64,000 bases of DNA from the IMG/VR virus record IMGVR_UViG_2579778842_000003, one strand, 5' to 3'. This DNA comes from a virus. Taxonomy: Duplodnaviria; Heunggongvirae; Uroviricota; Caudoviricetes. The notes beneath the pieces are model-generated. The model was given only the letters and a program-made list of their open reading frames with translations. It was not told the origin of the DNA and did not search any database. Below are positions 13,007 to 32,990 of the stretch, one piece after another (position 1 is the first letter of the stretch; each line of letters opens with the position of its first letter). The position numbers were made by a program, and so were the translations under genes.

Positions 13007-13221
13007 TATGATGTCAAGGAGTGAAGTAATGGCAACGTCTTCGTAGTTGACAAAAACTGCGACTCAATTATAGCAACCAATTAGAGCAATTAAAGTTGTT
13101 TATTTATCGCGAATCACATTTTTTCACTTCAGTACCTGTGTGCTATACTCCTTCTTGATTGATTGGATGCGGAATACAAACCCGCTCTTTTGTGCAGCCT
13201 GACTCCTTGCCAGGCTTTTTT

Positions 13222-13533
13222 TTATTTCATCATGGAAGCTGTTAACGCTTTGGACCTTGCTGAACTGATTGAGAGGGCTTTGTCAACGTGCCCCAAAAAT
13301 TCGCCAAACTCAGACATCACTTTAGCAAAACCGCGCCGTGCTTCTTCCTCGGTGGCATTCATCACGAAATGTTCAGCACCACGCATACTTTTGACAGGGA
13401 ACGCAACGGATATTGAATCAATATCAGGCATTCTATCGCTCAGCTTTACAGTGACAATGACGGCTGGCGACTGAATATTAGTGCTTACAGACAGCACTAC
13501 ATATTTTCCGTCGATGTTGAAATCCTTTCTCAT
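13222..13533 (-). CDS. Hypothetical protein downstream of cre (cra position), 103 aa
   Basis: ORF on cre strand between cre and ref; synteny only. Confidence 0.3.
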   Translation of the reverse strand: MRKDFNIDGKYVVLSVSTNIQSPAVIVTVKLSDRMPDIDSISVAFPVKSMRGAEHFVMNATEEEARRGFAKVMSEFGEFLGHVDKALSISSARSKALTASMMK

Positions 13534-13583
13534 ATGTCACCATAAATATCAAAGAATTAGAGCAATCATTTACGCGTTAATGG

Positions 13584-14615
13584 CTAATCGCCATCTTCCA
13601 GCAGGCGCACCATTGCCCCTGTTTCACTATCCAGGTTACGGATATAGTTCATGACAATATTTACGTTGGTCCAGCCACCAGCTTGCATGATCTCCGGTAT
13701 TGAAACTCCGGCACGGGCCATATCTCGCGCGGCTCCGACACGGGCACTGTGTCCAGACCAGGCCAGGTACCTCTGGCCAGAGTCATCCTTAGCCCCGTAA
13801 ATCAATCGGTGAGTTGCTTCAAAAATCCCTTCCAGGGCGCGAGTTGATAGCTGGCTGGTGGGTGATGGCGAGGCAACACCATTTTTTCTGACCCGGCAAA
13901 ACAAGTAGTTATTCGGATCATCAGCCACACCAGAGACAGAAATCCATCGCTCGACCAGTTTAGTTACCCCCAGGCTAAGTGCCTTCTCTACACCCGCGGT
14001 ACTAACCAGCGTTTTCGTTCTGCCAATATGGATTAACATTCTCCCACCGTCTGTACGTGAGATATCTTTAACCCTGATCCTGGCAATTTCGGCTATACGT
14101 AACAGGGTGTTATAAGCGATCCCCAGAAATGCCAGATTACGTATGTCCTGGCAGCGATCGCTATTTTCCATGAGTGAACGAACCTGGTCGAAATCAGTGC
14201 GTTCGAACGCCAATGCCTGTTTTGCACGTTCACCGGCATCAACGTTTTCTTTTCGAATCCGCCGCATGACCAGTGAAACAGCATTGCTGTCACTTGGTCG
14301 TGGCAGCCCGGACCGACGATGAAGCATGTTTAGCTGGCCCAAATGTTGCTGGATAGTTTTTACTGCCAGACCGCGCGCCTGAAGATATAGAAGATAATCG
14401 CGAACATCTTCAGGTTTTGCGGGAAACCATTTCCGGTTATTCAACTTGCACCATGCCGCCCATGACCGGCAAACGGACAGAAGCATTTTCCAGGTATGCT
14501 CAGAAAACGCCTGGCGATCCCTGAACATGTCCATCAGGTTCTTGCGAACCTCATCACTCGTTGCATCGACCGGCAATGCAGGCAAATTTTGGTGTACGGT
14601 CAGTAAATTGGACAT
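13584..14615 (-). CDS. cre: Cre tyrosine site-specific recombinase, 343 aa
   Basis: Protein begins MSNLLTVHQNLPALPVDATSDEVRKNLMDMFRDRQAFSEHTWKMLLSVCRSWAAWCKLNNRKWFPA and ends MVRLLEDGD, recognised as Cre; loxP lies about 420 bp upstream. Confidence 0.97.
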   Translation of the reverse strand: MSNLLTVHQNLPALPVDATSDEVRKNLMDMFRDRQAFSEHTWKMLLSVCRSWAAWCKLNNRKWFPAKPEDVRDYLLYLQARGLAVKTIQQHLGQLNMLHRRSGLPRPSDSNAVSLVMRRIRKENVDAGERAKQALAFERTDFDQVRSLMENSDRCQDIRNLAFLGIAYNTLLRIAEIARIRVKDISRTDGGRMLIHIGRTKTLVSTAGVEKALSLGVTKLVERWISVSGVADDPNNYLFCRVRKNGVASPSPTSQLSTRALEGIFEATHRLIYGAKDDSGQRYLAWSGHSARVGAARDMARAGVSIPEIMQAGGWTNVNIVMNYIRNLDSETGAMVRLLEDGD

Positions 14616-14622
14616 TTGACAC

Positions 14623-14844
14623 TCAGATAATGGTTTTAAGTAAAGTGTACAGGATCGGCTCTGCCTTTACCTGTTTATGGTTCTCGTCATAGAAACGCCA
14701 GCGACCGCGCGTGCGTTCTATTTTCTCTTCACCGCGCGATAATGACAGTTGACAACTATCACGATCAAACCCTTTTGCCCGCCAGTAACCACGGTTTTTC
14801 TCAAGCTCAATATGAGTGGACACTTTAGCAGCTGAATATCCCAT
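14623..14844 (-). CDS. Hypothetical small basic protein between loxP and cre, 73 aa
   Basis: ORF with SD GAGGTG 6 nt before ATG, preceded by CCAATCAATCA motif. Confidence 0.3.
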   Translation of the reverse strand: MGYSAAKVSTHIELEKNRGYWRAKGFDRDSCQLSLSRGEEKIERTRGRWRFYDENHKQVKAEPILYTLLKTII

Positions 14845-14941
14845 TTTTCACCTCTGATTGATTGGTGGTGCTAAGTGCGCTACGCGAAATCTAGAGCACA
14901 AACACTGCCAACATTTCGCAGATTTTACGTAGCGCAACCTT

Positions 14942-14961
14942 GATCAAATGATCAAGTGATC
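14942..14961. promoter_or_regulatory. Cluster of three GATC Dam sites within 20 bp in the region upstream of cre
   Basis: TGATCAAATGATCAAGTGATCAC; Dam control of cre promoters is described for P1. Confidence 0.4.
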
Positions 14962-15033
14962 ACTATTTGACCTGATAAGGTATTGAACTGTATGGATTTA
15001 CAGGTAAATTGATCATGTTCAATAACCCCTAAT

Positions 15034-15067
15034 ATAACTTCGTATAATGTATGCTATACGAAGTTAT
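15034..15067. other. loxP: loxP recombination site
   Basis: Exact ATAACTTCGTATA-ATGTATGC-TATACGAAGTTAT. Confidence 0.97.
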
Positions 15068-15110
15068 TAGGTCTGAAGAGGAGTTTACGTCCAGCTGCGC
15101 ATAAAAATCA

Positions 15111-15127
15111 ATAATTATTAGAGCAAT
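15111..15127 (-). promoter_or_regulatory. C1 operator-like site
   Basis: Minus strand ATTGCTCTAATAATTAT, 14 of 17 to recalled consensus ATTGCTCTAATAAATTT. Confidence 0.5.
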
Positions 15128-15193
15128 AAATTTTGAGAGAAAAATCCCACTCCACCAGCCAAAAACTGGATTGTTTTTCATAGTTGTTTGACA

Positions 15194-15210
15194 ATTGCTC
15201 TAATAAATTA
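15194..15210 (+). promoter_or_regulatory. C1 operator overlapping a TTGACA -35 element (coi-c1 promoter region)
   Basis: ATTGCTCTAATAAATTA, 16 of 17; TTGACA immediately upstream at 15189-15194. Confidence 0.7.
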
Positions 15211-15448
15211 TAGTTTTGCCGCCGTTTCGTAATACGACTTTGGATTCACTATTTAATGTGTCTTCAGCGTTGTAGAGCGGCTCAGAAGGAAATGAGCAAA
15301 CAGGGAAACCTTATACAACGGCATTACAGCTATGCATTGCTCATCTTACACACAGCGCAATGTTGTTAGATTACCCCAGCATGGATCATGGGTGAAACAG
15401 TAGGTCAGAGCTTCAGGCTCTGTGTTGTCAATACAGTGAGGCATAATT

Positions 15449-15658
15449 ATGGCTTTCATTCCACCAACCATCGACGACGTTAGACATTGCTCTAACGCTT
15501 TATCTGTAGACCCCGCCGAAACCGACGCTGCCCGCGCCATTGCTGAACACTACTCAAAGATATCCAATCAGGAGTACCGCATCACCCAAGACGACCTGGA
15601 TGATCTCACTGACACAATCGAATATCTCATGACCACTAACCAGCCAGACTCACAATAA
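15449..15658 (+). CDS. coi: Coi, C1 inactivator, 69 aa
   Basis: 69-aa ORF directly upstream of c1, length as recalled for P1 Coi. Confidence 0.7.
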   Translation: MAFIPPTIDDVRHCSNALSVDPAETDAARAIAEHYSKISNQEYRITQDDLDDLTDTIEYLMTTNQPDSQ

Positions 15659-15674
15659 ATGCACTAATAAATCT
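15658..15674 (+). promoter_or_regulatory. C1 operator-like site between coi and c1
   Basis: AATGCACTAATAAATCT, 14 of 17. Confidence 0.4.
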
Positions 15675-15768
15675 ATTATTTTCGTTGGATCCTTCTATAA
15701 TGGTGGCCAACAACTCCCAGCGTAATCCGCTGTGAGTTGTTGGCCATGTCAATTCTGGAGGAGGATCA

Positions 15769-16620
15769 ATGATAAATTATGTCTACGGCGAACAACTGTA
15801 CCAGGAGTTCGTCAGTTTCAGGGATCTCTTTCTAAAAAAAGCTGTTGCACGCGCCCAACACGTTGATGCCGCCAGCGACGGTCGTCCTGTTCGCCCGGTT
15901 GTCGTTCTGCCGTTCAAAGAAACGGACAGCATTCAAGCTGAAATTGATAAATGGACTTTAATGGCGCGGGAACTGGAACAGTACCCAGACCTCAATATCC
16001 CAAAGACTATTTTATATCCAGTGCCTAACATCCTTCGCGGTGTGCGTAAGGTTACAACTTATCAGACAGAAGCTGTGAACAGCGTCAACATGACCGCTGG
16101 CCGCATTATTCATCTGATTGATAAGGACATTCGCATCCAGAAAAGCGCGGGGATCAATGAGCACAGTGCGAAATACATAGAGAACCTGGAAGCAACAAAA
16201 GAGCTAATGAAGCAGTACCCGGAGGATGAAAAATTCCGTATGCGTGTACACGGCTTTAGCGAAACAATGCTGCGCGTCCATTACATTTCCAGTAGCCCTA
16301 ACTACAATGATGGTAAATCAGTTAGTTACCATGTGCCGCTGTGTGGTGTGTTTATCTGCGATGAAACTCTCCGTGATGGAATCATCATCAACGGTGAATT
16401 CGAGAAAGCAAAATTTAGCCTTTATGACTCTATAGAACCGATCATCTGCGACCGCTGGCCGCAGGCAAAAATATATCGCCTGGCAGATATTGAAAATGTA
16501 AAAAAACAAATTGCCATCACTCGCGAAGAGAAAAAGGTCAAATCAGCCGCATCAGTTACGCGCAGCCGTAAAACTAAGAAGGGGCAGCCAGTAAACGACA
16601 ACCCCGAAAGCGCGCAATAG
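15769..16620 (+). CDS. c1: C1 repressor of lytic functions, 283 aa
   Basis: 283 aa starting MINYVYGEQLYQEFVSFRDLFLKK, recognised as P1 C1; adjacent to coi and loxP. Confidence 0.9.
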   Translation: MINYVYGEQLYQEFVSFRDLFLKKAVARAQHVDAASDGRPVRPVVVLPFKETDSIQAEIDKWTLMARELEQYPDLNIPKTILYPVPNILRGVRKVTTYQTEAVNSVNMTAGRIIHLIDKDIRIQKSAGINEHSAKYIENLEATKELMKQYPEDEKFRMRVHGFSETMLRVHYISSSPNYNDGKSVSYHVPLCGVFICDETLRDGIIINGEFEKAKFSLYDSIEPIICDRWPQAKIYRLADIENVKKQIAITREEKKVKSAASVTRSRKTKKGQPVNDNPESAQ

Positions 16621-16644
16621 TTTCTATCCGGCATGGTCAATGAG

Positions 16645-18129
16645 TTATTCATTAAGCCATGCCAGAGCTTCATCAACCTGCGCTTCGTCTTCGACGCTAA
16701 GCACTTCATCCTGGGGAACATAATCCGCCAGCATAGCGAAACAATATGTATCCCAATGGTCTGGTGAGTGCAGGTTGAGTTTTTTCTTCATATCCTCCTT
16801 ACTCATCACCTTCCATTGACCTGCGGAGTTAATCCCTACAGGGATTTTCGACGCTTCCTCAATAGTTTCATTACCCTTATCCAGTCTCATACGACCAGAT
16901 TTTACGGCCTCTGCGGCTTGAACGTTGGCATAAGCACGTTTATCAAAGTACAGGCTCTTATCTTCACGGCTATGCATCTTTTTACCCCAGCGTATACGCT
17001 GTACGGTAATACCATAATACTCGTACATCAGATCCGCCGTTGCTTTACCCAGGCCATCGCCGTCTATCGCTATGGTGATATTTGGGAATCGCTCAGGATT
17101 ACATTCTGCGAAAATTTTGGCGGCAAGCTGCGTTTCTGTAACGTCTGTGTATTCCAGCATTCGATAGTTGATTACACGGCGTTTATTTCGCTGGCCGGAC
17201 ACCATCATGATATTGATAACGGACTTATCCCGTCCCGTACCACCAGCAACGTCCACACATGCAAGCCAGCCCCATCCTTTTGCAATCTTGACTTTCCGCC
17301 TCGTTGCACGTTCAACCTCATCACGTCCAAGAAGGAAGCCATCCTGTGATTTAGGGAATAGGCCGCGTACCTTAATCATGTACATAGGGTTATCACGCCC
17401 GCCGTACTCCGCCAGCTTCATTTTGATAAATGCTGGCGTTACCAGCGGTGATTCCTCACTGTTAAGCGTGATCGCCGTATAAACGCCATCAGGGTTACCA
17501 GGACGCTTGGCCAGTTTATGGTGAGTATCGTAGAAATAGCCGCTTGGGCGTGTAGGCTGTGACAGTAATAAGATGCGGTTATCCTGTCCGGTAAGAGCAC
17601 CGGTGATGATACCGAAAGCTCTATCACTGACACCGGAGGCTTCATCGATAATATACAGAAGATGATCTGCGTGTTCACCGGCGAGAGCTTCTTCACTTCC
17701 CAGACGAAAGCCCTTCGGTACTACAGTCCATACACCTTTACCAGTAACCTCATAGAAAGCGGTTTCTGTCAGAACAAAATAATCAGCAAGCCATGGAAAA
17801 CGGCTGGTGGCAGTAGCCCAGTTTATCTTGATGTACTTGAAAATACCGGTCATTACCTGCTGAATTTTGTTCGCAACGATAATGGCGCGGGCACCGGGAT
17901 ACATGATTATGAACAACATGATCATGATAGAAGTCATGTCTGATTTCCCGGTACCGTGACCAGACGAAACAGATGTCTTGCTACCCTGTTCCTGCACAGA
18001 CTCAATAATCAGATCCTGCTGCCAGGTAGGTGTTTTGCCGAACAAAACATCAGCGGCCGCAATCCAGTCATAACGATATAGCGCCACCAGCTCGCGCCAA
18101 CGTGGATCCGTTACGCAACTTCTGGCCAT
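16645..18129 (-). CDS. pacB: PacB, terminase large subunit, 494 aa
   Basis: 494 aa, start overlaps pacA stop, downstream of pac-containing pacA. Confidence 0.8.
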
Positions 18130-19322
18130 TAATCATCATCCCCGTATAGCTTGCGGGTAACTTCTTCGTCTTCCTCCTCGTCTTCGTCCAGGTCTTGTTC
18201 CAGCCATGGGTCGTTTGATACACCTTCAGTATCAACATCTCCATAACCGCCTGTATCAACGATATCGGCGATTTCTTCCCTACGCTGCTCAATCCACAAT
18301 GCGGCATCGGCGCGGCGGTTGGCGGCCCGTTCTCGCGCAACTTTATCCAGATCTTCAAGAGAAGGGCCACCGACGGCTGTTTGCCTTTCCTCATCATCGG
18401 TATTGGTCTTAGGAGCACGCAGATCGGCTTTGATTTGCTCCAGCATCAGGGGCGGAACTTTCCCACCATGCGCCTCGATGAATTCAGCTGCTTCCAGCAC
18501 TGACCAGTTATTTTCACGCTTTCGTTCGTATGCCAGCTTAACAATGCCAGCTTGCCCCATAGACAAAGCGTGCTTTTCCGCCTCCCGGCTTTCTTTTCGA
18601 TAGTTATTCCGGATGCTGTAAATGGTGTTGATCAGGCTGCTTATCTGCGCGGAACAGCTGTTTAGCATGCTCGCGATACGGTATTCAGGCGGAGTACCTT
18701 CATCATCGTCTTTTTGCTGATCGCGCATTTCCTGCACCAGGCGAATACACGTATCCCTGGCGTTCTCCAGCATAAGGAGATGAGAAAGAGACTTTTCAAG
18801 AAGAGTGGTTTCCAGAACATCGGCCCCGGACCGACGCAACATAGCGCGCGCGGCCTTCCGCGCTTCAACGTTATCTATCAGGTAATCGCCAGCTTCGAAT
18901 TCAAAGCGTTCACCATCATCATCCAGGGTGTCGCGTTCCAGGCGATCACGTAAGGTCCGGTGGGCGCGGGTGATCACGTCATGATCATCTGAACGATCAT
19001 TTATGCGCTTATTTTGGCGCTTCGCATTCTCGACTGCGGCACTGATAACGGCATTAACTCTCTGTTTTTCCGCTATTTCAGCCGCAATATGATCACCTGC
19101 ATGTTGATCATTAGAGTGATCAATGATCATGCTTTTTAGTGGCTTCCTGACTGGCTTATTTGGCTTGCGGCTGTCCGCAGTCCTGGAGTCTTCTTTGAAG
19201 GCACGGAGATAACGACGTGCGGTATTAGGGTTAAGATTAAACTCGGCGGCATACTGTGCGATGGTGTAACCACCATCTCGCGCCAGGCGAGCAAAATTCT
19301 TCTTGTGATCGTCCCAGGTCAC
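18129..19322 (-). CDS. pacA: PacA, terminase small subunit, 397 aa; contains the pac site
   Basis: 397 aa; coding sequence contains two clusters of TGATCA/TGATCG hexamers. Confidence 0.8.
18952..19129. other. pac: pac packaging site
   Basis: Four TGATC(A/G) hexamers at 18952-19000 and four at 19090-19129, about 90 bp apart, inside pacA. Confidence 0.7.
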
Positions 19323-19407
19323 TTATGCTTCCTTTCGTAAAAACTCTTTTTGACGCGAGGGTAACGAAAGTCACATGTCAAAAGGCCCGGAACGGGCAAG
19401 CAATCAA

Positions 19408-19860
19408 TCAGATACGTGCGGATGTGGCATTACCGTAATGACGGTGCTGACGGGCCACCTTATTGAAAAGTTGACGCGCCATTACCCAAGGCTGGTGCTC
19501 CCGGCGTTCCTTTTCGTCCTGCGTCATATAGAGTTCGTTCTGGAGTTTTTCATCAAACCGGCGCGGAGCGCGGCTACGGCGAAAGAATTCAGGATTCAGA
19601 GAGTGGATCTGAAATCTACGTGGGCGTGTACTGTCATCAATCAAAACAGACGAATACTTAGACACAGCGATAGCCTTTAAGCGCAGATAAACATCGCGCT
19701 TATCGACATCCAGATGCGGGTATTCCTTTTCAAGAATTGCTGCGAGTTCTTTCGCTGATAGAAGAGATTTAGTGCGGATCATGTAATCCGCAATCTCGTA
19801 CGATGTTATTCGTGAGTGATTTATTTCCATGAAGTGGCGTCCCTGCCAGTTAAGTAACAT
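19408..19860 (-). CDS. lpa: Lpa, late promoter activator candidate, 150 aa
   Basis: ORF immediately downstream of pacA operon region with a C1 operator-like site upstream; synteny. Confidence 0.5.
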   Translation of the reverse strand: MLLNWQGRHFMEINHSRITSYEIADYMIRTKSLLSAKELAAILEKEYPHLDVDKRDVYLRLKAIAVSKYSSVLIDDSTRPRRFQIHSLNPEFFRRSRAPRRFDEKLQNELYMTQDEKERREHQPWVMARQLFNKVARQHRHYGNATSARI

Positions 19861-19931
19861 CCTGTCACCTACTGATTAGCCCATGTCAACTAATCAACGT
19901 GGAATATAATACCCTCGATTAAAGAAATAGC

Positions 19932-19948
19932 AATACATTAGAGCAATT
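19932..19948 (-). promoter_or_regulatory. C1 operator-like site upstream of lpa
   Basis: Minus strand ATTGCTCTAATGTATTG, 14 of 17. Confidence 0.5.
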
Positions 19949-20992
19949 TTATATAACGCTCGACGAGTGACTTGTGATAGCGCCGACTCCAAGCGCGTAA
20001 TCAAAGAACAATCGTTGATGCATCGCCAGCCTACCGTGCGTCTTCTCCCAATTATCGCGGTCACGCTCAATATCACGCTGGCATGACTGGCACAGAGGAA
20101 TTGCGTAAATGTCATGCGCGCATAATCGACTATGACGAACGATATAAGGCGTAATGTGAGCGCCAGCTCCCGCCGCTCCACACCCACAGCATGGACGGGA
20201 AGCAACAAAGTCCATGTACTCAGGTAATTTTAGCGATTGCAGTTTTGGTATTTTGAAATGCGCCATGCCAGGGTCGGAGTCAACATCCACAGGGCATACT
20301 TTTGCACGCATCGGCGCGGCGCGTTCTTCCATCATCTGAACATATGCTGTAGCGCGATCGTCATACGGGCGAATATCCGCCTCTTTCAGAGGTCCGCTAT
20401 CCTGCGTTGCGGCTTTCATCTTATTTATTGATATACGGCAAACTTCTTCCGGCATCAGGTGCATCATGTTGCGCATGAAAGCCCACCAGCACAGTTCCTG
20501 AATACTTAGATCATGGCCATCTGAAAGCCCCATTTCCTGACGGGCGACATCCAGTATCCAGTTAACGCGATTATTATGCAGCGTTTCTTTCAGCTCATTA
20601 AAACCACGCATCCGGTAATGGTTATCGTGATGCCAGCACAACAACACCGCGCTATTGTCTCGTTCTGCGTGGACAATATGGTTGTCACACCAGCTACGAT
20701 CTGCGGCCTGGCATTGCCCCTCTTTCCTGCGCAACCACGCCACCAGCGCGTCAATTCCACCAATACGGCGAAACAGTTCATCGCTGTTAAAAAACGGCTG
20801 CAACGCCTCATTTGTTGCCATGGTTTGCTCGGTAACAACGAGGCCGTCTTCCATGTGCTCGATTAACTCGCGCGGCACCGGCTCCATAATAAATTTACGG
20901 CCAGCCTCCACCAGCTTTCTGACCTCCTGATCCACTTTGAACGTGGCGAGGCCAAGCTCTTTCTGTACAAAGGGAGTAATTACGGCTTTCAC
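19949..20992 (-). CDS. PdcB-like Cys-rich protein, 347 aa (GTG start)
   Basis: ORF downstream of doc; synteny with P1 pdcB. Confidence 0.4.
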
Positions 20993-21019
20993 ATCACACC
21001 TTTCATCACTGATTGGGCT

Positions 21020-21805: not shown

Positions 21806-21811
21806 AAACAC

Positions 21812-21840
21812 CTCGTGTACTCGTTATGTGTACACAATTA
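21812..21840. promoter_or_regulatory. phd-doc promoter/operator region with GTGTAC palindromic repeats
   Basis: CGTGTACTCG and TGTGTACACA just upstream of phd start. Confidence 0.5.
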
Positions 21841-21877
21841 TAAACTTCACAGGCATAAAGCACCAGCACTTTGCAGC

Positions 21878-24509: not shown

Positions 24510-25180
24510 ACTTCACCCTCGCTTGTATCACCAGCGTCCACCAACGACAATAAAGCCCTGGCCATCTTATGAACCAACAGTGCATCAATAATGCCAAGCG
24601 TATGCCCCGGCTTAATGTTTAATGCTGCCTCAAGATGACACCTTTCCAGACCGCTTTTCTCGGCTTGTTTATGATGATATGGCGTAATAACGTCGCCCAA
24701 AACACGGCTAATTCTTTCTCGTAATTGCTGGGTGCCAGCACACTTGATCGCTGTATCGTGGAGACGGTTAACCAGTTCGCGATAAACATGCGGTTTAATG
24801 CGGATACGTTCACCGGTGACGCCCTTTCCTGGCCCTGGCACCGAACTATCCGGAATATCCGGATAGTTGCCAGCCTCGTAAGCTACCCGCAGCCAGTGCA
24901 TGAATGTTTCAGTAGACACACAACCACAGTCCACATCGATTTTTCCGCGTTGCTGTTCCAGCCACTGCTCAAAATTCAATCTACACGTATTACTTTCATG
25001 TTGCTCTTTTTGTCTTAAGGCCAGCACCTGTTGGGCCAGTTCCAGAACGATACCGGGTGACGCTAACCTCTCAAATTCCAATAAATAGTTTGCGTCAGGA
25101 TGACAAGTAGCCTCGCCTGCAAAAAATACCAATTGCTGTAAGTATGCTGTCGTTAGAGTAGTCATTTCTTTTTGCGCCAT
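24506..25180 (-). CDS. Hypothetical protein, 224 aa
   Basis: ORF with 4-nt stop-start overlap to the next gene. Confidence 0.45.
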   Translation of the reverse strand: MAQKEMTTLTTAYLQQLVFFAGEATCHPDANYLLEFERLASPGIVLELAQQVLALRQKEQHESNTCRLNFEQWLEQQRGKIDVDCGCVSTETFMHWLRVAYEAGNYPDIPDSSVPGPGKGVTGERIRIKPHVYRELVNRLHDTAIKCAGTQQLRERISRVLGDVITPYHHKQAEKSGLERCHLEAALNIKPGHTLGIIDALLVHKMARALLSLVDAGDTSEGEV

Positions 25181-25536
25181 TTCTTTTCACATTCCTTAGT
25201 CCATTTTTCAATGTTCATTTTGGCAATATCAGTCATTCCATCACCTAAGAAATACTTTTTCCGGTACGTCTTGCACTTAAACCACACTACAACAGCCACC
25301 AGCCAGAAAATAAAAGGCCATACAGCAATACCAACGACAGCCGCGATAAAGCCCAATAGCCATAAATGAAGCTCTCCAACTTCTGTTTCCGGCAATATTC
25401 TTAAAGAATTAAACAGCAGGCTGAACGAATGGTCGTATGCATTGGCAGTATAAGACATGCAATCCATATAATTAAAGTCATAGCCTGCGGCTGCCGCCCA
25501 TAATGGGCGGTCAAGAAAATGTTTTAGTGTCATCAT
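25162..25536 (-). CDS. Hypothetical membrane protein, 124 aa
   Basis: Hydrophobic segment LWLLGFIAAVVGIAVWPFIFWLVAVVVWF. Confidence 0.4.
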   Translation of the reverse strand: MMTLKHFLDRPLWAAAAGYDFNYMDCMSYTANAYDHSFSLLFNSLRILPETEVGELHLWLLGFIAAVVGIAVWPFIFWLVAVVVWFKCKTYRKKYFLGDGMTDIAKMNIEKWTKECEKKWRKKK

Positions 25537-25542
25537 ATAAAT

Positions 25543-25932
25543 TTAAGGTTCAGACCAGTTATCTTCAATAGCAATGCTTAATCTTTGTAGCCATTCTGCT
25601 AATTTCAGCATTGCTTCTCTTTCGCTTAAACCACGAGGAAAATCATCAAGCGAAATTGTTGGCTTGAATCCCCCGCAATTATCCATTTCAACTGTCAGAT
25701 TTTGTTCCAGCACGGTATTTCTTACGCGGCTATTGTGCCGGAGCAAATATACTGAGCATGATTTATTGGTTTTGTGGTCTAGCTTATATTCGGTAAGTAT
25801 CATCTGGCTTTTGCCATGATTATTACCTCTCCACATACTTACCTCACTTAATAAAACAACTCCATGCGTAGTTGATGATTTTTTCCCACGTAATATAAAT
25901 CTGCACTCCGGCAGTAAAACCAAAGCCAACAA
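25543..25932 (-). CDS. Hypothetical protein, 129 aa
   Basis: ORF in co-directional block. Confidence 0.3.
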   Translation of the reverse strand: MLALVLLPECRFILRGKKSSTTHGVVLLSEVSMWRGNNHGKSQMILTEYKLDHKTNKSCSVYLLRHNSRVRNTVLEQNLTVEMDNCGGFKPTISLDDFPRGLSEREAMLKLAEWLQRLSIAIEDNWSEP

Positions 25933-26014
25933 TTGCTGAAAAAATCAAAACATTTACTTTTGACATTATAAACTTTCTCTCGGTGTCGTAGGTGATAGCA
26001 CCATAATTGATAAT

Positions 26015-26248
26015 TTAGTGAGTTAGCAGTTCCATTTTTTTGATGATTTCCGCATGAGCATCATCGTTATCAACACTTAGCTCGTTTAATGCTTCTCGCA
26101 CTACATCAACTTCTTCAGGCTGAAAGAAGTCGTCGCGGTAATCACCAAATAGAACCGAAACCAGCCTGCTACCAGCAACATCAAGATTGGCGCTAACAGG
26201 TGGCTCTTTGCCATCCTCAAATTCGACTACAAAAGTTAATTTTCCCAT
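26015..26248 (-). CDS. Hypothetical acidic protein, 77 aa
   Basis: ORF in co-directional block. Confidence 0.3.
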   Translation of the reverse strand: MGKLTFVVEFEDGKEPPVSANLDVAGSRLVSVLFGDYRDDFFQPEEVDVVREALNELSVDNDDAHAEIIKKMELLTH

Positions 26249-26324
26249 CGTTACCCCCAGAAGATAAAAATAGCGGCAATCGCCATAGCTACGCCTACAA
26301 TCGCAAATGCTTCAGGCCAGCTTA

Positions 26325-26585
26325 TTACCTCACCTCCAGTCTCCATACCGCCTGACCAATCCGGCTGGCATGGGTATCTTTGGATACTGTTCCATCTTTA
26401 GCCAGCTCCATAAGAATTTTGCGCAAATCTGCCGAACGCCATTCTTCATCAGGAAATTCCTTCTCCATTGCCAACCGCAGATTCCAGGTTGCTATCGTGA
26501 ATGGATATTCCCCGCCGAGAGCTTTCTCTTGCAGGGCAGCACGGGAACGTATCACCTGCAAAACCTTCTCTTTTACATCCATCAT
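26325..26585 (-). CDS. Hypothetical protein, about 86 aa from internal Met
   Basis: Internal ATG forms ATGA overlap with stop of the upstream gene. Confidence 0.35.
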   Translation of the reverse strand: MMDVKEKVLQVIRSRAALQEKALGGEYPFTIATWNLRLAMEKEFPDEEWRSADLRKILMELAKDGTVSKDTHASRIGQAVWRLEVR

Positions 26586-27769
26586 TTTGCCTCCTGCGGC
26601 GGTTCTGGTAGCGGCATCCAGTGTGATGGTATCCACGACGCACCAGGTATTACCCACCCATCATTAGCGTCAGGATGCCCCGGGATGTAAGTCGCCCATT
26701 TCATTCGCCAGTCACCTTTCCTGTCAAACTCCCTGGCAACAAGAACGGCTGTTTTGGTATCCGGCATTCGCTCACTACAGCTTATCCAACTATCCGGAAT
26801 TACCGGAAAGTTGCGCATTGCGACCTTTAATGCCTCATAGAAGCACTCTTTCAAATTGTTGAACTGACACCCATTTAGAGGACCGTGTTCAGTCAGCATG
26901 TTGTGTAATTTCCATGCCGCGTCGTTTACTGCGTTGGATGACATGGGAGGCAACTTGTAAGCCTGGCTTACAGGCTCGGAACCATGAAGAATGGCGGCGC
27001 GGCAGGCATCCTCTACGCCCTTAACTGCATCTGCGCAGTAGTTATAGCGATTGCATTCCACTAACTTCTGCTTGAGATTTTCAATTGCTTGTGCGACATC
27101 AGCCTGTATTGGTGGAACGGCTGTCTGCTGCTCTCGAACGTCATTAGTCGCTATCGGTTCTGCTGCCAACTGACTGGCATATTTGTTAATGGTAACGATA
27201 AGCTCTTGCTCAGCCTCATCCAGACAATCACCGATACCTCGTCTGTCGCCGTCAAAATCATCGAAATCAGCACGAACTCTGGCAAACTTCAGGATTGCGG
27301 ACAACACCTCACCAGGAATTACCGGAGAGTTGGTTGACGTTTCCGCAATTTCCCGAAAATTATTGGTTGACGCATTCGCGTTTTTCCGAAAGTTTCCGGC
27401 ATGAAGCATAGCCGCGCGGCAGGCGTTCCAGCCTCTCACCTCTGCAATAGCGGCAACAGCATCGACCGCGTACATGCTAAGAGGGTTAGGCATTGGTTTT
27501 TCTTCCGGTACTACTGGCGCTGGAGGGGCAGTGTAAAGCTGGTGCGTTCCATCAGGTAGCGAGTGACCCACATACTCACCGACCCCGTCAATACACATGC
27601 CCCCATCTTCAACAATGCATTCCGCTACAGGCTCTGCTTCCAGTGATGCCAGCGCAATCCGTGCCAGCTCTTCCGCTTCTTCTGCTGGCAGTACAACGTT
27701 GCTACCAGGTCCGTATGTTTCGCGCCACTCCTTGATTGTCAGCAGTCGCTCTTTGGTAATAGTGATCAT
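26582..27769 (-). CDS. Phage protein with DUF551-like C-terminus, 395 aa
   Basis: C-terminal WIPSHWMPLPEPP pattern typical of a common phage domain. Confidence 0.45.
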   Translation of the reverse strand: MITITKERLLTIKEWRETYGPGSNVVLPAEEAEELARIALASLEAEPVAECIVEDGGMCIDGVGEYVGHSLPDGTHQLYTAPPAPVVPEEKPMPNPLSMYAVDAVAAIAEVRGWNACRAAMLHAGNFRKNANASTNNFREIAETSTNSPVIPGEVLSAILKFARVRADFDDFDGDRRGIGDCLDEAEQELIVTINKYASQLAAEPIATNDVREQQTAVPPIQADVAQAIENLKQKLVECNRYNYCADAVKGVEDACRAAILHGSEPVSQAYKLPPMSSNAVNDAAWKLHNMLTEHGPLNGCQFNNLKECFYEALKVAMRNFPVIPDSWISCSERMPDTKTAVLVAREFDRKGDWRMKWATYIPGHPDANDGWVIPGASWIPSHWMPLPEPPQEAK

Positions 27770-28281
27770 GCCGCGTTTCCTTCTTTCTTATTAACAATTA
27801 CACCGTCATATATTTCATTAAGGTGCCCTCTCAACTCCATGCGCCTTAATGCAGATAACATGTAATCGCATTCAACCTGCTTATTCCCAATAAAAGGTTT
27901 ATCTTCAGGGTTACCCCAACAGCAATTCCCCTTGGGCCATCCATGTACTTTCCGTACTCTTCCGTTAACAACGTGAAGTAATCCCCAGCCAGGAGGTAAA
28001 TCCTCAATTGAAATAATTCCCGGCTCACTAATAAAGAATCGCCAGTCGCCCATGCCAAGTGAGGGATTTTTACGGAAACGCTTTTTTCTATCTGCCAACA
28101 AATCAGCACGAGAACACTTCGCCTCTATCAGGCATGATGCTGAATTTCTGAATCCCATAGCATCTGGCTGTTCTCCGGTACTGGTTACAGCTATAAAGCG
28201 GTCATGAAAACAAACCTTGAACCCGTTGCGCTTAAGGAACTTGTACGCAATCTGACAGAGTTCGCGGTGTGTTAACGCCAT
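27766..28281 (-). CDS. PD-(D/E)xK nuclease-like protein, about 172 aa
   Basis: D...E-x-K arrangement (PDAMGF ... LIEAKCSRADL); start taken at internal Met just after upstream stop. Confidence 0.4.
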   Translation of the reverse strand: MALTHRELCQIAYKFLKRNGFKVCFHDRFIAVTSTGEQPDAMGFRNSASCLIEAKCSRADLLADRKKRFRKNPSLGMGDWRFFISEPGIISIEDLPPGWGLLHVVNGRVRKVHGWPKGNCCWGNPEDKPFIGNKQVECDYMLSALRRMELRGHLNEIYDGVIVNKKEGNAA

Positions 28282-28282
28282 A

Positions 28283-28951
28283 TCACTCTCCTTTGATGCG
28301 AATGCCAGCGGCGCGTGGCACATTAACTTCCACGATGCGCACAGTTGGTTTGTACATCTCAATCGCAGTCAGCCAGTCAGCGCCAGTCATGCGCTTTTCT
28401 GCATCGCCATTAGTCCACTTAACCGGTACACCAATAGCCTTCATCGCGATTTCTATTTCCCCGGCAATGGCGCTTTTTCCGCAACCAGTAAAACCAGATA
28501 CAACGACCAGAACTTCACCTTTGGCTGGTTTTATTTCCCGCGCTTCCAGTTCTGCTATGCGCTTACTTCCATCCGAGATAACACCTTCGTAATACTCACG
28601 CTGCTCGTTGAGTTTTGATTTTGCTTCCTCAAGCTCAACTCTCAGCTTCCCTACCGTTAGCGCAATATCCTCGTTCTCCTGGTCACGGCGTTTGATGTAT
28701 TGCTGGTTTCTTTCCCGTTCATCCAGTAGTGCCAGCACGGTTTCTGGTCCGGCCAGAAATTTGAAGGCGTTGAGCGCATCAATATCCACACCGTAATCTT
28801 TAAGTTCCTGTTCACTTAACAAATCATCATCAGCTGGCAACATTAACAGGCGTTCCATTGCTGGAATTGCACGTTCCGCCGCCTCACGCAGTGCCTGATA
28901 GTCAATCTTGCTCACTGGTTGCCTCCTTGGCGGAGTTGCGCTGCGATGCAT
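28283..28951 (-). CDS. Coiled-coil protein with C-terminal P-loop NTPase motif, 222 aa
   Basis: Walker A-like GFTGCGKS. Confidence 0.4.
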   Translation of the reverse strand: MHRSATPPRRQPVSKIDYQALREAAERAIPAMERLLMLPADDDLLSEQELKDYGVDIDALNAFKFLAGPETVLALLDERERNQQYIKRRDQENEDIALTVGKLRVELEEAKSKLNEQREYYEGVISDGSKRIAELEAREIKPAKGEVLVVVSGFTGCGKSAIAGEIEIAMKAIGVPVKWTNGDAEKRMTGADWLTAIEMYKPTVRIVEVNVPRAAGIRIKGE

Positions 28952-29151
28952 GAAAAAAAAGACTCCCGAGTGTGACAGTTAAGAGCTGGTGCGAACGCCG
29001 CGTTAAGAACGGCGGCATCACAGCCGTCATCAATATAGAGCGCAATTTTTTTCTCCAGGCGCGCTTTGGCTTCCTGCAACTGCATACCCCGGCACGCACG
29101 CGGGATATAATCAGCAATTTGAGCGATAGCTTTTTCGTTCTGTTTAAACAT
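28912..29151 (-). CDS. Hypothetical protein, 79 aa
   Basis: Small ORF with overlap coupling in the block. Confidence 0.25.
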   Translation of the reverse strand: MFKQNEKAIAQIADYIPRACRGMQLQEAKARLEKKIALYIDDGCDAAVLNAAFAPALNCHTRESFFSCIAAQLRQGGNQ

Positions 29152-29347
29152 GCTTCACCTCGATAGGCTTGATGGTGTCTAACAGCAGTCGGCGGCGCGT
29201 ATTTTCTGCAAAATGGCGGCGCCCAGTTTCTTTGTGGTAAAACTCGTTTTTGCCGACGACCCACATCCGCTCTGTTTGGTGCAGTTTTTTTACCTTCGGG
29301 CCATCTTTGGTGATCACGGTACCGGTATGGGTTTTTACGATTGTCAT
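29144..29347 (-). CDS. Hypothetical protein, 67 aa
   Basis: ATGA overlap with upstream PP-loop gene. Confidence 0.3.
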   Translation of the reverse strand: MTIVKTHTGTVITKDGPKVKKLHQTERMWVVGKNEFYHKETGRRHFAENTRRRLLLDTIKPIEVKHV

Positions 29348-30222
29348 TCCACTACCTCTTCGAATTTCAACTCCAATTGGTCACCCCAGATTTCACATGA
29401 TTCGGAACACGAACCAGTATCAAACCGCTTGGCCAGCACCATCGCCTGATACAAATTTCTGTAGTCACTGTCGGCATACATTCTGGCAATCCCGTCAAGC
29501 GTCAGGTGGCCACGGTACATAACGTCTTTACCTGTTCTGCGCTGACCATCCCTGACGTGTTTGCCTGTAACCAGTTCATTAAAAACCCGCATCAGACCTG
29601 GTTCGTCTTTACATGCAAGCCCCAGCTTTTGCGTTGACTTTTTGATGCAAAAAACACAGTTCCCGAGGTGCTCCGGGATTTGCAAATCAAAAGGTTGTTT
29701 TCGCCACCACCGGATAACATCCGACTTATCAAAATCTGACAGTTCGGCAAGATACCGGACGCCCGGTTTCGGTTTCAGCCTACGGGGTTCGTCCGCACGA
29801 ATACCGAGCCATGTGATGTAATTCCCTCGCCCAAAATGATCATCGCAATATTTCGTGAAAGGGGTGAGTTTTAGCCTGTCGGTACAGAACGCGCCGCCGA
29901 TGTATGGCGTACCGTACTTTTTAACCATGTCCATAAACGGTTTAAGCACCGGCATTCGCGTCTGAATATCCTTTGGTTCCCATTCCGTATAACCATTTGG
30001 CTGCCCAAGTTCTGGATTTATATCGACCTGCAACACCGTTAGCGGTACGTTCCAGAACTTCACAACCTCACGAATAAAGCGATACGTCAGAGGATGTTCA
30101 CAGCCGGTATCCATAAAAATGAAATGGACGCTAGCGCCAGCTTTTCGCTGTGCTTCCATCAGATGAACGAGATAAGCCGATGTTCGTCCACCTGAAAAGC
30201 TGACAACTTGATGCATACTCAC
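29344..30222 (-). CDS. PP-loop ATPase, PAPS reductase-like family, 292 aa
   Basis: N-terminal VSFSGGRTS PP-loop motif. Confidence 0.55.
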   Translation of the reverse strand: MSMHQVVSFSGGRTSAYLVHLMEAQRKAGASVHFIFMDTGCEHPLTYRFIREVVKFWNVPLTVLQVDINPELGQPNGYTEWEPKDIQTRMPVLKPFMDMVKKYGTPYIGGAFCTDRLKLTPFTKYCDDHFGRGNYITWLGIRADEPRRLKPKPGVRYLAELSDFDKSDVIRWWRKQPFDLQIPEHLGNCVFCIKKSTQKLGLACKDEPGLMRVFNELVTGKHVRDGQRRTGKDVMYRGHLTLDGIARMYADSDYRNLYQAMVLAKRFDTGSCSESCEIWGDQLELKFEEVVE

Positions 30223-30225
30223 GGT

Positions 30226-30954
30226 TTATTCCTGAATGCGCTTAAACTCGATTACCCACACCCAGGGATTAGCGTTCCAGCTTTCTTCACCATAGATGGA
30301 TTCCCACAGGCGCTGGAACGCAACCTTGGCCATTGCGAAATCCCCCTTGGGAGTAAGGAATGTTCCCGGGTGATCAGGAAGCAAACTTCCAGCAGGCGGA
30401 ACGCCCTCATCCCTTGCATCGCATTCGCTGATATCGTTCAACCGCTCAACGCGCACGTTGGTAATTTCCAACAGGATGCGTGATGCCCATCGCGGCATGT
30501 GAATTGATGGACGCCACCCACCATCAAACTTTTCATTCACTGTGTGAGGTTTCCAGTCGGCATCATCTGGTATCGACCATAAACCGTAATCACCAGGCTT
30601 TTGCTCACAACTGGCCCGATAAATCCTTGCTGCGTTCTTCTCATCGCCACGACAAAGGTTGTCGTTCCAGTCCACACTGCAACCATCTTCATTGCCTAAT
30701 ATCGCCCATGTTTCACGAACCCAAATTCGATCGCCGACGATACCAAAGGGGCAATTGAAAACACTGCTTACACCATCAGCCCCGTACCACTGAAAACCTG
30801 CACCAATTTTTCTAACCATCACTGGTGCTTCTGGACCAACTTCCGCAGGCTGATTTTTCATTATCCGCCGCGTCTGCGTTTTCCTTCCTTCGAGGATGGC
30901 CCGGACCATCTCATCGTTGAAAATCATGCCGCGCTCTTTCACTTCGCCTTTCAT
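30226..30954 (-). CDS. Phage protein with ASCH-like N-terminus, 242 aa
   Basis: N-terminal FNDEMVRAILEGRKTQTRR pattern common in phage ASCH-like proteins. Confidence 0.4.
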   Translation of the reverse strand: MKGEVKERGMIFNDEMVRAILEGRKTQTRRIMKNQPAEVGPEAPVMVRKIGAGFQWYGADGVSSVFNCPFGIVGDRIWVRETWAILGNEDGCSVDWNDNLCRGDEKNAARIYRASCEQKPGDYGLWSIPDDADWKPHTVNEKFDGGWRPSIHMPRWASRILLEITNVRVERLNDISECDARDEGVPPAGSLLPDHPGTFLTPKGDFAMAKVAFQRLWESIYGEESWNANPWVWVIEFKRIQE

Positions 30955-31079
30955 GCATCCCCCTTACCCATGCGCGACGATGCCGCCAAAAGTGATAGAG
31001 AACAGCCAGAAATAGATCGCGGCCATAATGATTTTGAATGCCGTGTTCATATTTTCAGCTCCTGTGATTGATTGGATAC

Positions 31080-31104
31080 ATGCCGCGCCTTGCGGCATGT
31101 TTTT
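31080..31104 (+). terminator. Orphan plus-strand intrinsic terminator directly after a GATTGATTGG motif
   Basis: ATGCCGC-GCCTT-GCGGCAT then G TTTTT; no plus-strand gene upstream. Confidence 0.5.
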
Positions 31105-31132
31105 ATTTTCACTTTCTCTGTTTTAAAAATCA

Positions 31133-31149
31133 AGATTTATTAGAGCAAT
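31133..31149 (-). promoter_or_regulatory. C1 operator
   Basis: Minus strand ATTGCTCTAATAAATCT, 16 of 17. Confidence 0.65.
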
Positions 31150-31655
31150 TATTGTTGATGAAGAAGCGCATTTTCATACTCCCTGACCATTAACGTAAGC
31201 ACGCCGTGCCTCCTGAAAACACGCGCCACTTCAATCTTATCTTCCAGCGCGAACGCGATTTTACTTAGACCAATTTTCTTAAGGAGATCAATCTTTGCTG
31301 GGCCGTCATTTCTGTCATCGGTGGCAGGACGCATAGATAGCAAAGGCTCAGCCCCGTTTGTTACGTACTTCCGCAGCCAGGCTCGTGTTTTATCCCTTGC
31401 GATCTCACAGCGCCCGGTTACAAACCAGACCGTGTAAACGCTAAATAACTGGCGCACCATATCAATAACTGGAGTGATGGGAGTATCGGTGTCACAGGCG
31501 AGATTAAACTCGTTCCAGTCCTTTGTTAATGCACCTTTACTTGGTGGCGGAAGCAAATGCAGTCTGTCTTCAGTTGCCTCTGATATTGTTCCATCAATAT
31601 CGACTATGACGATATACGGACGTTCCTGGTGTGCATGTTTATTGAAAATACTCAA
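31149..31655 (-). CDS. HAD-superfamily phosphatase-like protein, 168 aa
   Basis: DxDGT motif in VDIDGTIS near N-terminus. Confidence 0.5.
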   Translation of the reverse strand: MSIFNKHAHQERPYIVIVDIDGTISEATEDRLHLLPPPSKGALTKDWNEFNLACDTDTPITPVIDMVRQLFSVYTVWFVTGRCEIARDKTRAWLRKYVTNGAEPLLSMRPATDDRNDGPAKIDLLKKIGLSKIAFALEDKIEVARVFRRHGVLTLMVREYENALLHQQ

Positions 31656-31727
31656 ATGCCCTCCTCATTGGATGAAAAAAATGCTGGTGGGCGCACTCCA
31701 CCAGCATTAAAAGTGACACTGTAACTA

Positions 31728-32990
31728 TCAGCGGACGTAAATAGTGCCGCCGTTCTCTTTTTCCCATGCATCGCTACGTGCATAGCAAACATCGAGAAGT
31801 CTTCTTGCCGCTGTTTCCTCTAAACCCAATTCGACAACCAACTGCTCATGACGGCGGGTAACCACATCAAACAGGGTATGCAACCCTTTAGTTGCCAGAT
31901 CATCAATGAATTCCGGTTCGAACGGCAGCTCTGCATCTGCCAACATAACCTCTTGCGCCCACTCAACTCGACGGACCAATTCCGGGCGGCGGCTTTCCAT
32001 CTCTTTACAGATCAATTCATGGAAGAACTCTACCCAACCTTCCGGCTGGAACTCGCGGAAAATTGCCAACGGCTGGAAGTTTGGCATCAACCATTCGTTG
32101 ATTCGGATATCAATGGCATAGCCCATGTCGCAGCAGAACTGATAAGCAAAGTCCAGCTTAGAAACGATATAAGGACGCTCGTTATTGAACTCTTTAGGCG
32201 ATGAGATCCCATAAGCCAGGAGGCGCGGGAAGAAGGAGATTTGCCCTAACGTCGGATGAAGTTTGCTTGCAGGGAAACGGCGCTCAGTAATGCCATACAT
32301 TTCCTTCTTGAGCGTCGCAAATTTGGCATTCTCATTAACCAGCGCGGTAACCTCTGCTTTTTTATTAGCAAATGCCACGCGCGCCTCGCTTGCATCTTTA
32401 ATAGTTTTTTTGAGCTGTTGGTTAAGGTCGGCGACCTGCTTACGCAGTTCCTGTCGCTCGCTTTTAGCTTTGTTATAGCGTTTCTCAAGGTTAAAAGGAT
32501 CAAGTTTCATGATCTCTTTATATTGAGATTTTAGCGTTGAAATCTGTGAGTTCCGCAGTTCAACCATCGCGGTCATTTCATTGAGTTTTGTTTCCAGCTC
32601 AATGCTTATACGTTCGGCATTATCAGCACGCTGGTTGGCGTCATGCGTCGCATCGTCGATCGCGTCCTGTTGCTGGCGTTTCAAATGTTCAATTTGCAGC
32701 TGAAGCTCTTCAATTTCTTTACCCTTCAGACCGAGATCCAACTGCATATTTTCAGCTGCATCTACCAGGGAGTTATGGCTATCAGCTTCTGCGTTATAAA
32801 CATCAATAAGCTGTGCGTGAAGCATCTCCGCTGACTGAACCGCATTATCAAAAAAACGTGCTGTGAGGTCATCACAACTAACGCGGCGTTGCGCGGCCCG
32901 GATGTTCTGGATAATGGCCGGGATACCGGCATTCAGGACGTCAGGGATAGATACATTTTCGATTGATTGGTTTTGTGCTGAAGTGCTCAT
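31728..32990 (-). CDS. Coiled-coil protein with C-terminal globular domain, 420 aa
   Basis: Large ORF; Q/E/K-rich heptad-like central region. Confidence 0.45.
   Translation of the reverse strand: MSTSAQNQSIENVSIPDVLNAGIPAIIQNIRAAQRRVSCDDLTARFFDNAVQSAEMLHAQLIDVYNAEADSHNSLVDAAENMQLDLGLKGKEIEELQLQIEHLKRQQQDAIDDATHDANQRADNAERISIELETKLNEMTAMVELRNSQISTLKSQYKEIMKLDPFNLEKRYNKAKSERQELRKQVADLNQQLKKTIKDASEARVAFANKKAEVTALVNENAKFATLKKEMYGITERRFPASKLHPTLGQISFFPRLLAYGISSPKEFNNERPYIVSKLDFAYQFCCDMGYAIDIRINEWLMPNFQPLAIFREFQPEGWVEFFHELICKEMESRRPELVRRVEWAQEVMLADAELPFEPEFIDDLATKGLHTLFDVVTRRHEQLVVELGLEETAARRLLDVCYARSDAWEKENGGTIYVR

Follow-up and report, generated by a model that had tools for sequence, protein, structure and literature searches.

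A candidate small RNA gene between c8 and ref in P1-like phage-plasmids and its putative target sites in early mRNAs

The c8–ref locus and its repeated motif

The DNA analyzed here, a stretch of 64,000 nucleotides (nt) from IMG/VR virus record IMGVR_UViG_2579778842_000003 (hereafter, the window), belongs to a P1-like phage-plasmid and runs as the reverse complement of P1 coordinates. Two of its loci are central to this analysis, namely positions 12500–15050 (P1 2552–1), which carry ref, c8, cre and cra, and positions 30500–33500 (P1 84942–81942), which carry pmgT, pap, pmgS and pmgR; as judged by megablast, P1-like phages are 95–98% identical at both. Operator and promoter names (Op88, PpmgT, Oref, P2ref) are transferred from the P1 record AF234172. 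Both loci contain copies of the 10-mer GATTGATTGG, one of which forms the predicted 5' end of a candidate small RNA (sRNA) of ~68 nt (13156–13224, plus strand; complement(1828..1896) of AF234172). This putative gene is located in the interval of c8 and ref, in antisense orientation; all neighbouring genes are on the other strand. The locus is unannotated in the P1 record, which lists 44 features within these 3 kb, and it has no Rfam family.

The recurrence of the 10-mer, which had been reported in a preliminary description of this DNA, is real: plus-strand copies are located at 13157–13166, 14856–14865, 31066–31075 and 32961–32970, and the 11-mer TGATTGATTGG is found without mismatch in the first three of these sites, as claimed, the fourth reading CGATTGATTGG. 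Together with a copy at 41914–41923 that had been overlooked, there are five exact matches in the window against a mean of 0.24 in dinucleotide shuffles, none of 100 shuffles reaching five. The statement that the motif always has the same orientation holds for four of the five copies and fails for the fifth, which is on the opposite strand inside a 332-amino acid (aa) minus-strand open reading frame (ORF). The latter copy cannot pair with the sRNA because the mRNA there has the sRNA-sense sequence, and it is probably a chance occurrence outside the system. The positions of the other copies relative to genes are as described, i.e., next to the Shine-Dalgarno (SD) sequences of cra and of the ORF starting at 31050, upstream of ref (181 nt from its ATG at 12975), and inside the 420-aa gene, pmgS. 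Given that the neighbouring genes are all on the minus strand, their mRNAs read CCAAUCAAUC(A). The longest identity between sites is 13 nt (TGATTGATTGGAT, shared by the copies at 13157 and 31066) and the flanks are unrelated beyond it, which excludes a shared duplicated segment, the origin that the preliminary description had itself set against its proposal. No further copies of GATTGATTGG are present in the 3–50 kb segment of P1 (3000–50000).

The predicted promoter of the candidate sRNA comprises an extended −10 element, TGcTATACT (13141–13149, plus strand), located exactly 7 nt before the motif, and a weak −35-like hexamer, TTTTCA (13121–13126, plus strand), found in a promoter scan. The arrangement of TG-n-TATACT, exactly 7 nt and GATTGATTGG is kept in P1-, JK004-, L216- and pCVMN1543-type elements, with a spacer of varying sequence, and it is as such a pattern, the extended −10 of four lineages, that the promoter is predicted. 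In two P1-like contigs from IMG/VR (L045 and L079), unrelated DNA replaces everything upstream of ...CCTGTGTGCTATACT, so that rearrangement breakpoints lie immediately upstream of the extended −10 of the sRNA. The −35-like hexamer would seem to be dispensable, as the unrelated DNA in these contigs comes within ~9 nt of the −10 on its upstream side, and the presence of foreign DNA adjoining the element in two relatives fits a −35-independent promoter. The nearest C1 operator, Oref, together with the divergent ref promoter P2ref (13074–13090, minus strand; both annotated in P1), is arranged back-to-back with the predicted sRNA promoter, ~50 bp from the −10, and does not overlap it.

The predicted transcript begins with a seed, GAUUGAUUGG (13157–13166), which is identical in all four lineages. 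The first 8–9 nt of the sRNA are unpaired in every minimum free energy (MFE) structure, and the seed as a whole is mostly single-stranded (mean P(unpaired) 0.5–0.7), its two 3' G bases forming the foot of hairpin 1 (13165–13188). This hairpin is followed by a U-rich spacer and by an intrinsic terminator (13196–13224) that consists, in the P1 type, of an 8-bp GC-rich stem (stem-loop 13196–13216) and U8, the U-tract overlapping the c8 stop codon (13222–13224, minus strand); in the other lineages, the terminator reads UCUUUCUUUU or UUUUUCUUUU. When read on the c8 strand, the hairpin has no trailing U, and therefore the terminator is directional. A Rho-independent terminator with a 3' U-tract, as found here, is a feature expected of base-pairing sRNAs. 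Position 13202, in the terminator stem, is A in the window (CCTGACTCC) but G in P1 and most relatives (CCTGGCTCC). The predicted transcript has a nucleotide diversity (pi) of 0.008 across 51 distinct full-length P1-like sequences, compared to 0.058 in the ref leader, 0.071 in the c8 coding sequence and 0.118 in the c8–cre spacer.

Putative target sites and their covariation with the candidate sRNA

The other three plus-strand copies of the motif fall at the beginnings of minus-strand genes. In the leader of cra-cre, CCAAUCAAUCA (14855–14865) comes after a long hairpin and directly precedes the cra SD (GAGGUG, 14854–14849; AUG at 14844), in the layout CCAATCAATCA-GAGGTG-AAAA-ATG. This site is invariant in 72 P1-like loci and is kept in the homologous leaders of Cronobacter phage JK004 (47836) and Salmonella plasmid pCVMN1543 (12603). 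In the second locus, CCAAUCAAUCA (31065–31075) directly precedes the well-matched SD (AGGAG, 31063–31059; layout CCAATCAATCA-CAGGAG-N8-ATG) of a hydrophobic 28-aa ORF (MNTAFKIIMAAIYFWLFSITFGGIVAHG; 30964–31050, minus strand), the first cistron before pmgT, which is missing from the P1 annotation. Here the predicted pairing with the sRNA reaches 15 bp and −22.8 kcal/mol, with P(unpaired) of 0.80 for the motif. A related small ORF in pCVMN1543 begins with MHTVFKLAMAAFYIWIF, and a small ORF is found at the same position in JK004 (MHLIFKLAITAFYAW..., a translation read by eye). The third site, CCAAUCAAUC (32961–32970), is located within pmgS (31728–32990), at codons 7–10 (nt +21 to +30). In JK004 and pCVMN1543, pmgS has the 10-mer at the equivalent position, with codons 2–5 and 11–15 differing across the three lineages; its invariance amid diverged codons points to selection at the nucleotide level.

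Most of the target transcripts begin at promoters controlled by the C1 repressor, and several targets share a common leader layout, in which a C1 operator/promoter is followed by a 5' hairpin, CCAAUCAAUC, the SD and the AUG. The 28-aa ORF is a case in point: the operator OpmgT (Op88; 31133–31149, minus strand), which reads ATTGCTCTAATAAATCT, overlaps the promoter of the transcript, and a hairpin in the 5' untranslated region (5'-UTR; 31078–31100) lies between the −10 elements of PpmgT annotated in P1 and the motif. The P1 record describes the segment with Op88 and the small ORF as nearly identical to DNA that adjoins the hsd loci of EcoDXXI and R124; the sequences of P7 and SJ46 depart from it just past this segment, which thus lies at a mosaic junction.

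Diverged relatives, identified by tblastn with Ref, include JK004 (64% identity) and D6 (54%), and five Salmonella plasmids were found by blast against plasmids. The motif search suggested in the preliminary description, carried out on the window and on these relatives, locates further copies in JK004 and pCVMN1543. JK004 has six copies of GATTGATTGG (0.15 expected), all in a single orientation, opposite to the genes. One of these, at 44881, belongs to a predicted sRNA gene with the arrangement TGaTATACT-N7-GATTGATTGG, a hairpin of entirely different sequence, and a 3' part that consists of a conserved UGUGC spacer, a terminator with a GC stem and a GAAA loop, and a U-rich tail; there is no C1 operator near its promoter. 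The remaining five copies belong to mRNAs, where they lie in the leader or, for pmgS, at the 5' end of the gene. Specifically, the motif adjoins the AUG of ref, which has no SD; it lies 5' of the SD in the first gene of the cre operon (with a GCGCUACG-hairpin leader as in P1 cra), in the homologue of the small ORF, and in another small ORF (gene_104) behind a C1-operator-like sequence; and it occupies the same codons of pmgS as in the window. The complete pCVMN1543 sequence contains one predicted sRNA gene and, in homologous places, three exact sites (in pmgS, in a leader of the cra type and at a small ORF preceded by a consensus C1 operator), one 9/10 site at a small-ORF leader and one 8/10 site at the next gene. 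The more distant D6, which serves as a negative control, lacks the motif as well as any homologue of the sRNA, including one with an alternative seed.

The ten representative sRNAs share one common fold. The sequence of hairpin 1 is unrelated among the lineages (GCGG..CCGC, UGUAG..CUACA, UGCAGGA..UCCUUGCA) while its fold is retained, with compensatory changes at three of the four consensus pairs; a U-A pair of the P1-type terminator is replaced by C-G in the other lineages. Both hairpins are recovered by RNAalifold, and altogether 4 of the 12 consensus pairs show compensatory changes. The combination of a conserved, accessible seed with a remainder that varies in sequence but keeps its structure is the pattern expected of an sRNA. 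A covariance model yields exactly one strong match per related genome (85.6 bits for the window, 73.6 and 61.4 bits), none in D6 or in P1 3–50 kb, and seed-level noise only where the motif occurs elsewhere. A scan of genome contigs with the overly loose pattern TATACT-N5–11-GATTGATTGG returned chance matches. Tighter scans, made on viral and metagenome contigs, added two further sRNA variants and returned only members of the same four lineages and ~10 chance matches.

The base that follows the seed differs between the lineages, and the targets follow it. The sRNA of JK004 reads ...UUGG-C, with C at nt 11, and all five of its targets have G-CCAA; the sRNA of pCVMN1543 reads ...UUGG-UUU, and all three exact targets provide three further pairs (AAA or GAA before CCAA). 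Accordingly, the cra-type leader, pmgS and the small-ORF target switch from G to A along with the change from C to U in the sRNA; in pmgS, this is seen as AGC vs AAC in codon 7, which tracks nt 11 of the sRNA. In both the JK004 and the pCVMN1543 lineages, the complementarity ends exactly at the predicted +1. The sRNA of the P1 lineage has an extra A after the seed, and therefore only the site at the 28-aa ORF extends to 15 bp; a P1-like variant that lacks this A recovers two pairs with cra. Within the P1-like group, diversity is too small for covariation to be informative. Taken together, complementary sites are present at several translation initiation regions and have co-evolved with the sRNA, as would be expected of the targets of a base-pairing regulator.

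Natural variants of the seed were observed in a few P1-like elements, namely a GATT triplication, TTGATTGATTGATTGG, in L006 (plasmid pA409_p0), GATTTATTGG in L007, GATTGATTGT in L033 and GATTGATTGA in L035 and L040. The variant with GATTGATTGA additionally lost the TG of the extended −10. In those loci that include the cra site, this site is unchanged in all of the variants.

A probable trans-acting sRNA and competing explanations

Judging from these sequence comparisons, we consider it likely that the motif reflects the seed and the target sites of a trans-acting sRNA conserved in P1-like phage-plasmids. The sRNA seems not to have been described in Rfam or in the literature that we found, and is apparently a previously unannotated gene. 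The preliminary description had proposed short plus-strand RNAs starting at the motif and pairing near ribosome-binding sites; for the copy at 13157, this proposal agrees with the predicted promoter, the terminator, the seed and the covariation, whereas for the presumed RNA ending at 31104 it is not supported. Both plus-strand hairpins with T-runs that had been noted are present (13196–13216 followed by T8, and 31078–31100 followed by TTTTTATTTT), and the strength of the second one (z = −3.9) would be compatible with two sRNA genes, the additional one producing either a ~40-nt RNA that runs from 31065 to the 31078–31100 hairpin as its terminator, or a longer antisense RNA as in type I toxin-antitoxin systems. 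The adjacent ORF is small and hydrophobic, in a manner similar to type I toxins, and the 13-mer common to the 13157 and 31066 sites also speaks for this option. Nevertheless, a second gene is quite improbable: there is no plus-strand promoter and no TGnTATACT in 30000–33500, no plus-strand unit lies upstream of the hairpin, the bases upstream are the start of the ORF, and the locus scores only 15.5 bits (E ~1) against the sRNA model. Moreover, the leaders of JK004 and pCVMN1543 have a hairpin of different sequence at the equivalent position that lacks the T-run, and the T-run seen in the window corresponds to the opposite strand of the AT-rich −10/start region of PpmgT. The 31078–31100 hairpin is thus more likely, on the evidence of its sequence context, the 5'-UTR stem-loop of a target mRNA than an orphan terminator. 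A type I toxin-antitoxin module at the 31050 ORF is likewise not supported, given the missing promoter and the missing T-run in relatives.

Two further explanations dispense with an sRNA altogether. CCAAUCAAUC could function in cis as an mRNA element that a protein or the ribosome recognizes, such as a C/A-rich translational enhancer, a standby site, or a binding site for a regulator or RNase; the copy at 13157 would then be one more site on c8–ref read-through RNA, with a promoter and a terminator on the antisense strand by coincidence. Several observations are compatible with this possibility: every copy that looks functional has the mRNA sense and is placed between a 5' hairpin and an SD, the 13157 copy in the window is itself followed by an SD-like AAGGAG, and the location of the motif at the AUG of JK004 ref, without an SD, suggests that the motif can itself support initiation. 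However, a cis element leaves unexplained the TGnTATACT on the opposite strand at 7 nt and the terminator in four lineages, the target flanks that vary in accordance with the base behind GG of the cognate sRNA, and the end of complementarity at the predicted +1, and we regard it as unlikely as the sole explanation; an enhancer role and an sRNA-target role are, in any case, compatible. The least probable of the explanations considered, in our assessment, is that the motif acts at the DNA level, as a site for a DNA-binding protein, a recombination site or a module boundary, ~58 bp from C1 operators. This distance is indeed constant between Op88 of the window and the pCVMN1543 site at 85020, and the Op88/small-ORF segment, nearly identical to hsd-adjacent DNA and with P7 and SJ46 diverging past it, lies at a mosaic boundary; yet the functional-looking copies are strictly oriented relative to transcription, one of them is part of the coding sequence of pmgS, the motif has no palindromic symmetry, and the spacing follows from the succession of operator/−35, −10, +1, a ~23-nt hairpin and the motif, with the sRNA-like gene and the covariation left unexplained. 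Comparison by eye also shows that the motif does not fit the IHF site WATCAANNNNTTR.

Several findings weigh against a trans-acting sRNA. The rare P1-like seed variants GATTGATTGA, GATTGATTGT and GATTTATTGG are unaccompanied by a matching change at the cra site, and the covariation statistics are thin because they involve only four lineages. The cra and pmgS sites pair with the P1-lineage sRNA over 10–11 bp only, with nt 11 (A) mismatched. The calculation of duplex energies that had been proposed earlier, performed genome-wide, places the motif sites high in the ranking but does not cleanly separate them from the best background windows, with which their energies overlap. The accessibility of the motif in the leaders ranges from 0.34 to 0.80 (P(unpaired)), so that in some of them (0.34–0.55) it is partly base-paired. 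The activity of the predicted promoter would depend on the extended −10 alone, the −35 being weak, and the G-to-A mismatch weakens the terminator stem of the window (MFE of the whole RNA −16.0 vs −23.2 kcal/mol in P1).

We envisage that the operator-free promoter makes an RNA of ~68 nt that starts at GAUUGAUUGG, 7–8 nt downstream of the extended −10, and that this sRNA pairs over 10–15 bp with its targets, either beside the SD or in the first ten codons. Such pairing would presumably block 30S binding, trigger decay, or both, damping the expression of accessory early operons where it is leaky or early and providing a post-transcriptional layer over C1. Given that the sRNA is fully antisense to c8–ref read-through transcripts, it might also act in cis on this RNA. 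We infer repression rather than activation, although, because the accessibility of the motif varies and some copies are partly in a stem, activation is conceivable. The sRNA may depend on Hfq or, in JK004 and pCVMN1543, on a phage-encoded ProQ/FinO-family protein. The latter two elements encode proteins of this family that are 75% identical to each other (72985–73515 in pCVMN1543, L219 29985–30515; 81956–82486 in JK004) and that are not found in the window, in P1 3–50 kb or in D6; these could be phage-borne chaperones for the sRNA or for other RNAs.

A broader proposal, which we put forward as a tentative one and consider rather doubtful, is that P1-like elements possess a second RNA-based immunity or maintenance circuit, in which a constitutive 5'-seed sRNA co-represses a regulon of C1-controlled accessory early operons. 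This regulon would include the cra-cre, ref, pmgT and pmgR-pmgS operons and small membrane peptides, and the sRNA would set the threshold of its expression in lysogens and after induction. The 'establishment of lysogeny' phenotype of c8 might partly stem from the sRNA, the c8 ORF ending inside the sRNA terminator, and the seed may reach host mRNAs as well.

Among known systems, the analogy invoked in the preliminary description was to the C4 antisense RNA, a short phage RNA that is cut out of the c4-icd-ant transcript and represses icd-ant translation by pairing at the ribosome-binding region, as a layer on C1 immunity. The candidate sRNA is similarly short, phage-encoded, directed at ribosome-binding regions and layered on C1, so that the analogy stands at the functional level; it fails beyond that, given that C4 (in the immI region) lies outside the window, shares no sequence with the sRNA and pairs through two loops. 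In the P1 record, C4 is located inside the c4-icd-ant transcript, downstream of P1c4/P2c4, and pairs by a' and b' with a2 and b2 of one operon, whereas the candidate sRNA has a predicted promoter of its own, a single 5'-terminal seed and several dispersed putative targets. Membership in the C4 family was rejected, as no Rfam C4 match was obtained at either gathering or E-value thresholds and P1 C4 does not contain GATTGATTGG; likewise, C4-type processing with two-site loop pairing is not seen in an RNA with a predicted promoter of its own, a terminator and a single seed.

A closer parallel is provided by RybB, OmrA/OmrB and MicC, trans-acting enterobacterial sRNAs with the seed at the extreme 5' end, which the candidate resembles in its putative independent promoter, its single-stranded seed (~10 nt) at the 5' end, a terminator U-tail and multiple putative targets in initiation regions. 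Unlike these, it is encoded by a phage-plasmid, has no sequence homology to them, and its identified targets are the early genes of its own element. The G/U-rich seed of GcvB pairs with a C/A-rich element upstream of the SD, and such elements may enhance translation; the candidate combines the same kind of seed with the same kind of target, just upstream of the SD, but it is not a GcvB homologue (10–20 bits vs the gathering threshold of 42) and its seed is at the 5' end rather than internal. DicF, IsrK, lambda OOP and P22 Sar are regulatory RNAs of phages and prophages, OOP and Sar being cis-antisense. Like these RNAs, the candidate is phage-borne, has a terminator and could act on phage transcripts, and in common with OOP and Sar it is fully antisense to a read-through transcript of its own locus; it differs from all four in sequence, seed and regulon, and in having trans targets over ~20 kb of the phage genome. 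The sRNA would appear to work in the manner of the enterobacterial 5'-seed sRNAs, with a likeness to C4 that is functional.

P1 is among the best-studied temperate phages, the source of Cre-lox and a workhorse of generalized transduction, and resistance genes of Enterobacteriaceae are commonly carried by P1-like phage-plasmids. If the interpretation as a trans-acting sRNA is correct, a conserved sRNA would add a post-transcriptional layer to the control of P1 early genes (the cra-cre leader and, in relatives, ref), with possible relevance to Cre dosage and plasmid-prophage maintenance. The P1 annotation also misses the conserved small ORF and the 5'-UTR design (5' hairpin, C/A-rich site, SD) of several C1-controlled transcripts. 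One gene of 68 nt, a 10-nt seed (which could be substituted, for example, from GAUUGAUUGG to GAUUCAUUGG) and three reporter fusions offer a handle for experiments. A full-text literature search with the motif strings and for sRNAs of P1 and punaviruses returned nothing relevant, most subscription journals being outside its reach, so that an earlier description is conceivable. An RNA-seq preprint on P1vir and hfq includes no analysis of the sRNA locus (bioRxiv 10.64898/2025.12.28.696737), and the target genes are not needed for plaque formation (PMC10695390). A Pfam search of the target proteins identified no families, PmgS giving only a sub-threshold coiled-coil match.

Additional features of the window and its relatives

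Rfam searches at E-value thresholds over both loci returned sub-threshold noise only (SorX at 15.9 bits, GcvB at 10–20 bits), and the search of the whole window at gathering thresholds detected nothing except three tRNA genes, all on the minus strand (44437–44509, 46317–46389 and 46395–46467). In JK004, a weak match to the sRNA model (23.7 bits, E ~0.015) at 83989–84100 (L092 36989–37100, minus strand) lies between convergent genes and is probably a terminator only.

On the minus strand of the window, a strong terminator-like hairpin at 12988–13007 (AGGCGGCCATTAGGCCGCCT TTTTTTT, U7) separates the ATG of ref from its C1-controlled promoters, and in JK004, a hairpin with U8 directly before the ref start matches this layout; these elements may control ref by attenuation or give rise to a short leader RNA.

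The left end of the window corresponds to P1 19923–9750, and the segment of P1 that encodes EcoPI res/mod (P1 3468–9750) is missing from it. In place of the latter, the window carries ~1.4 kb (10174–11585) that contains a 435-aa minus-strand ORF (10221–11528).

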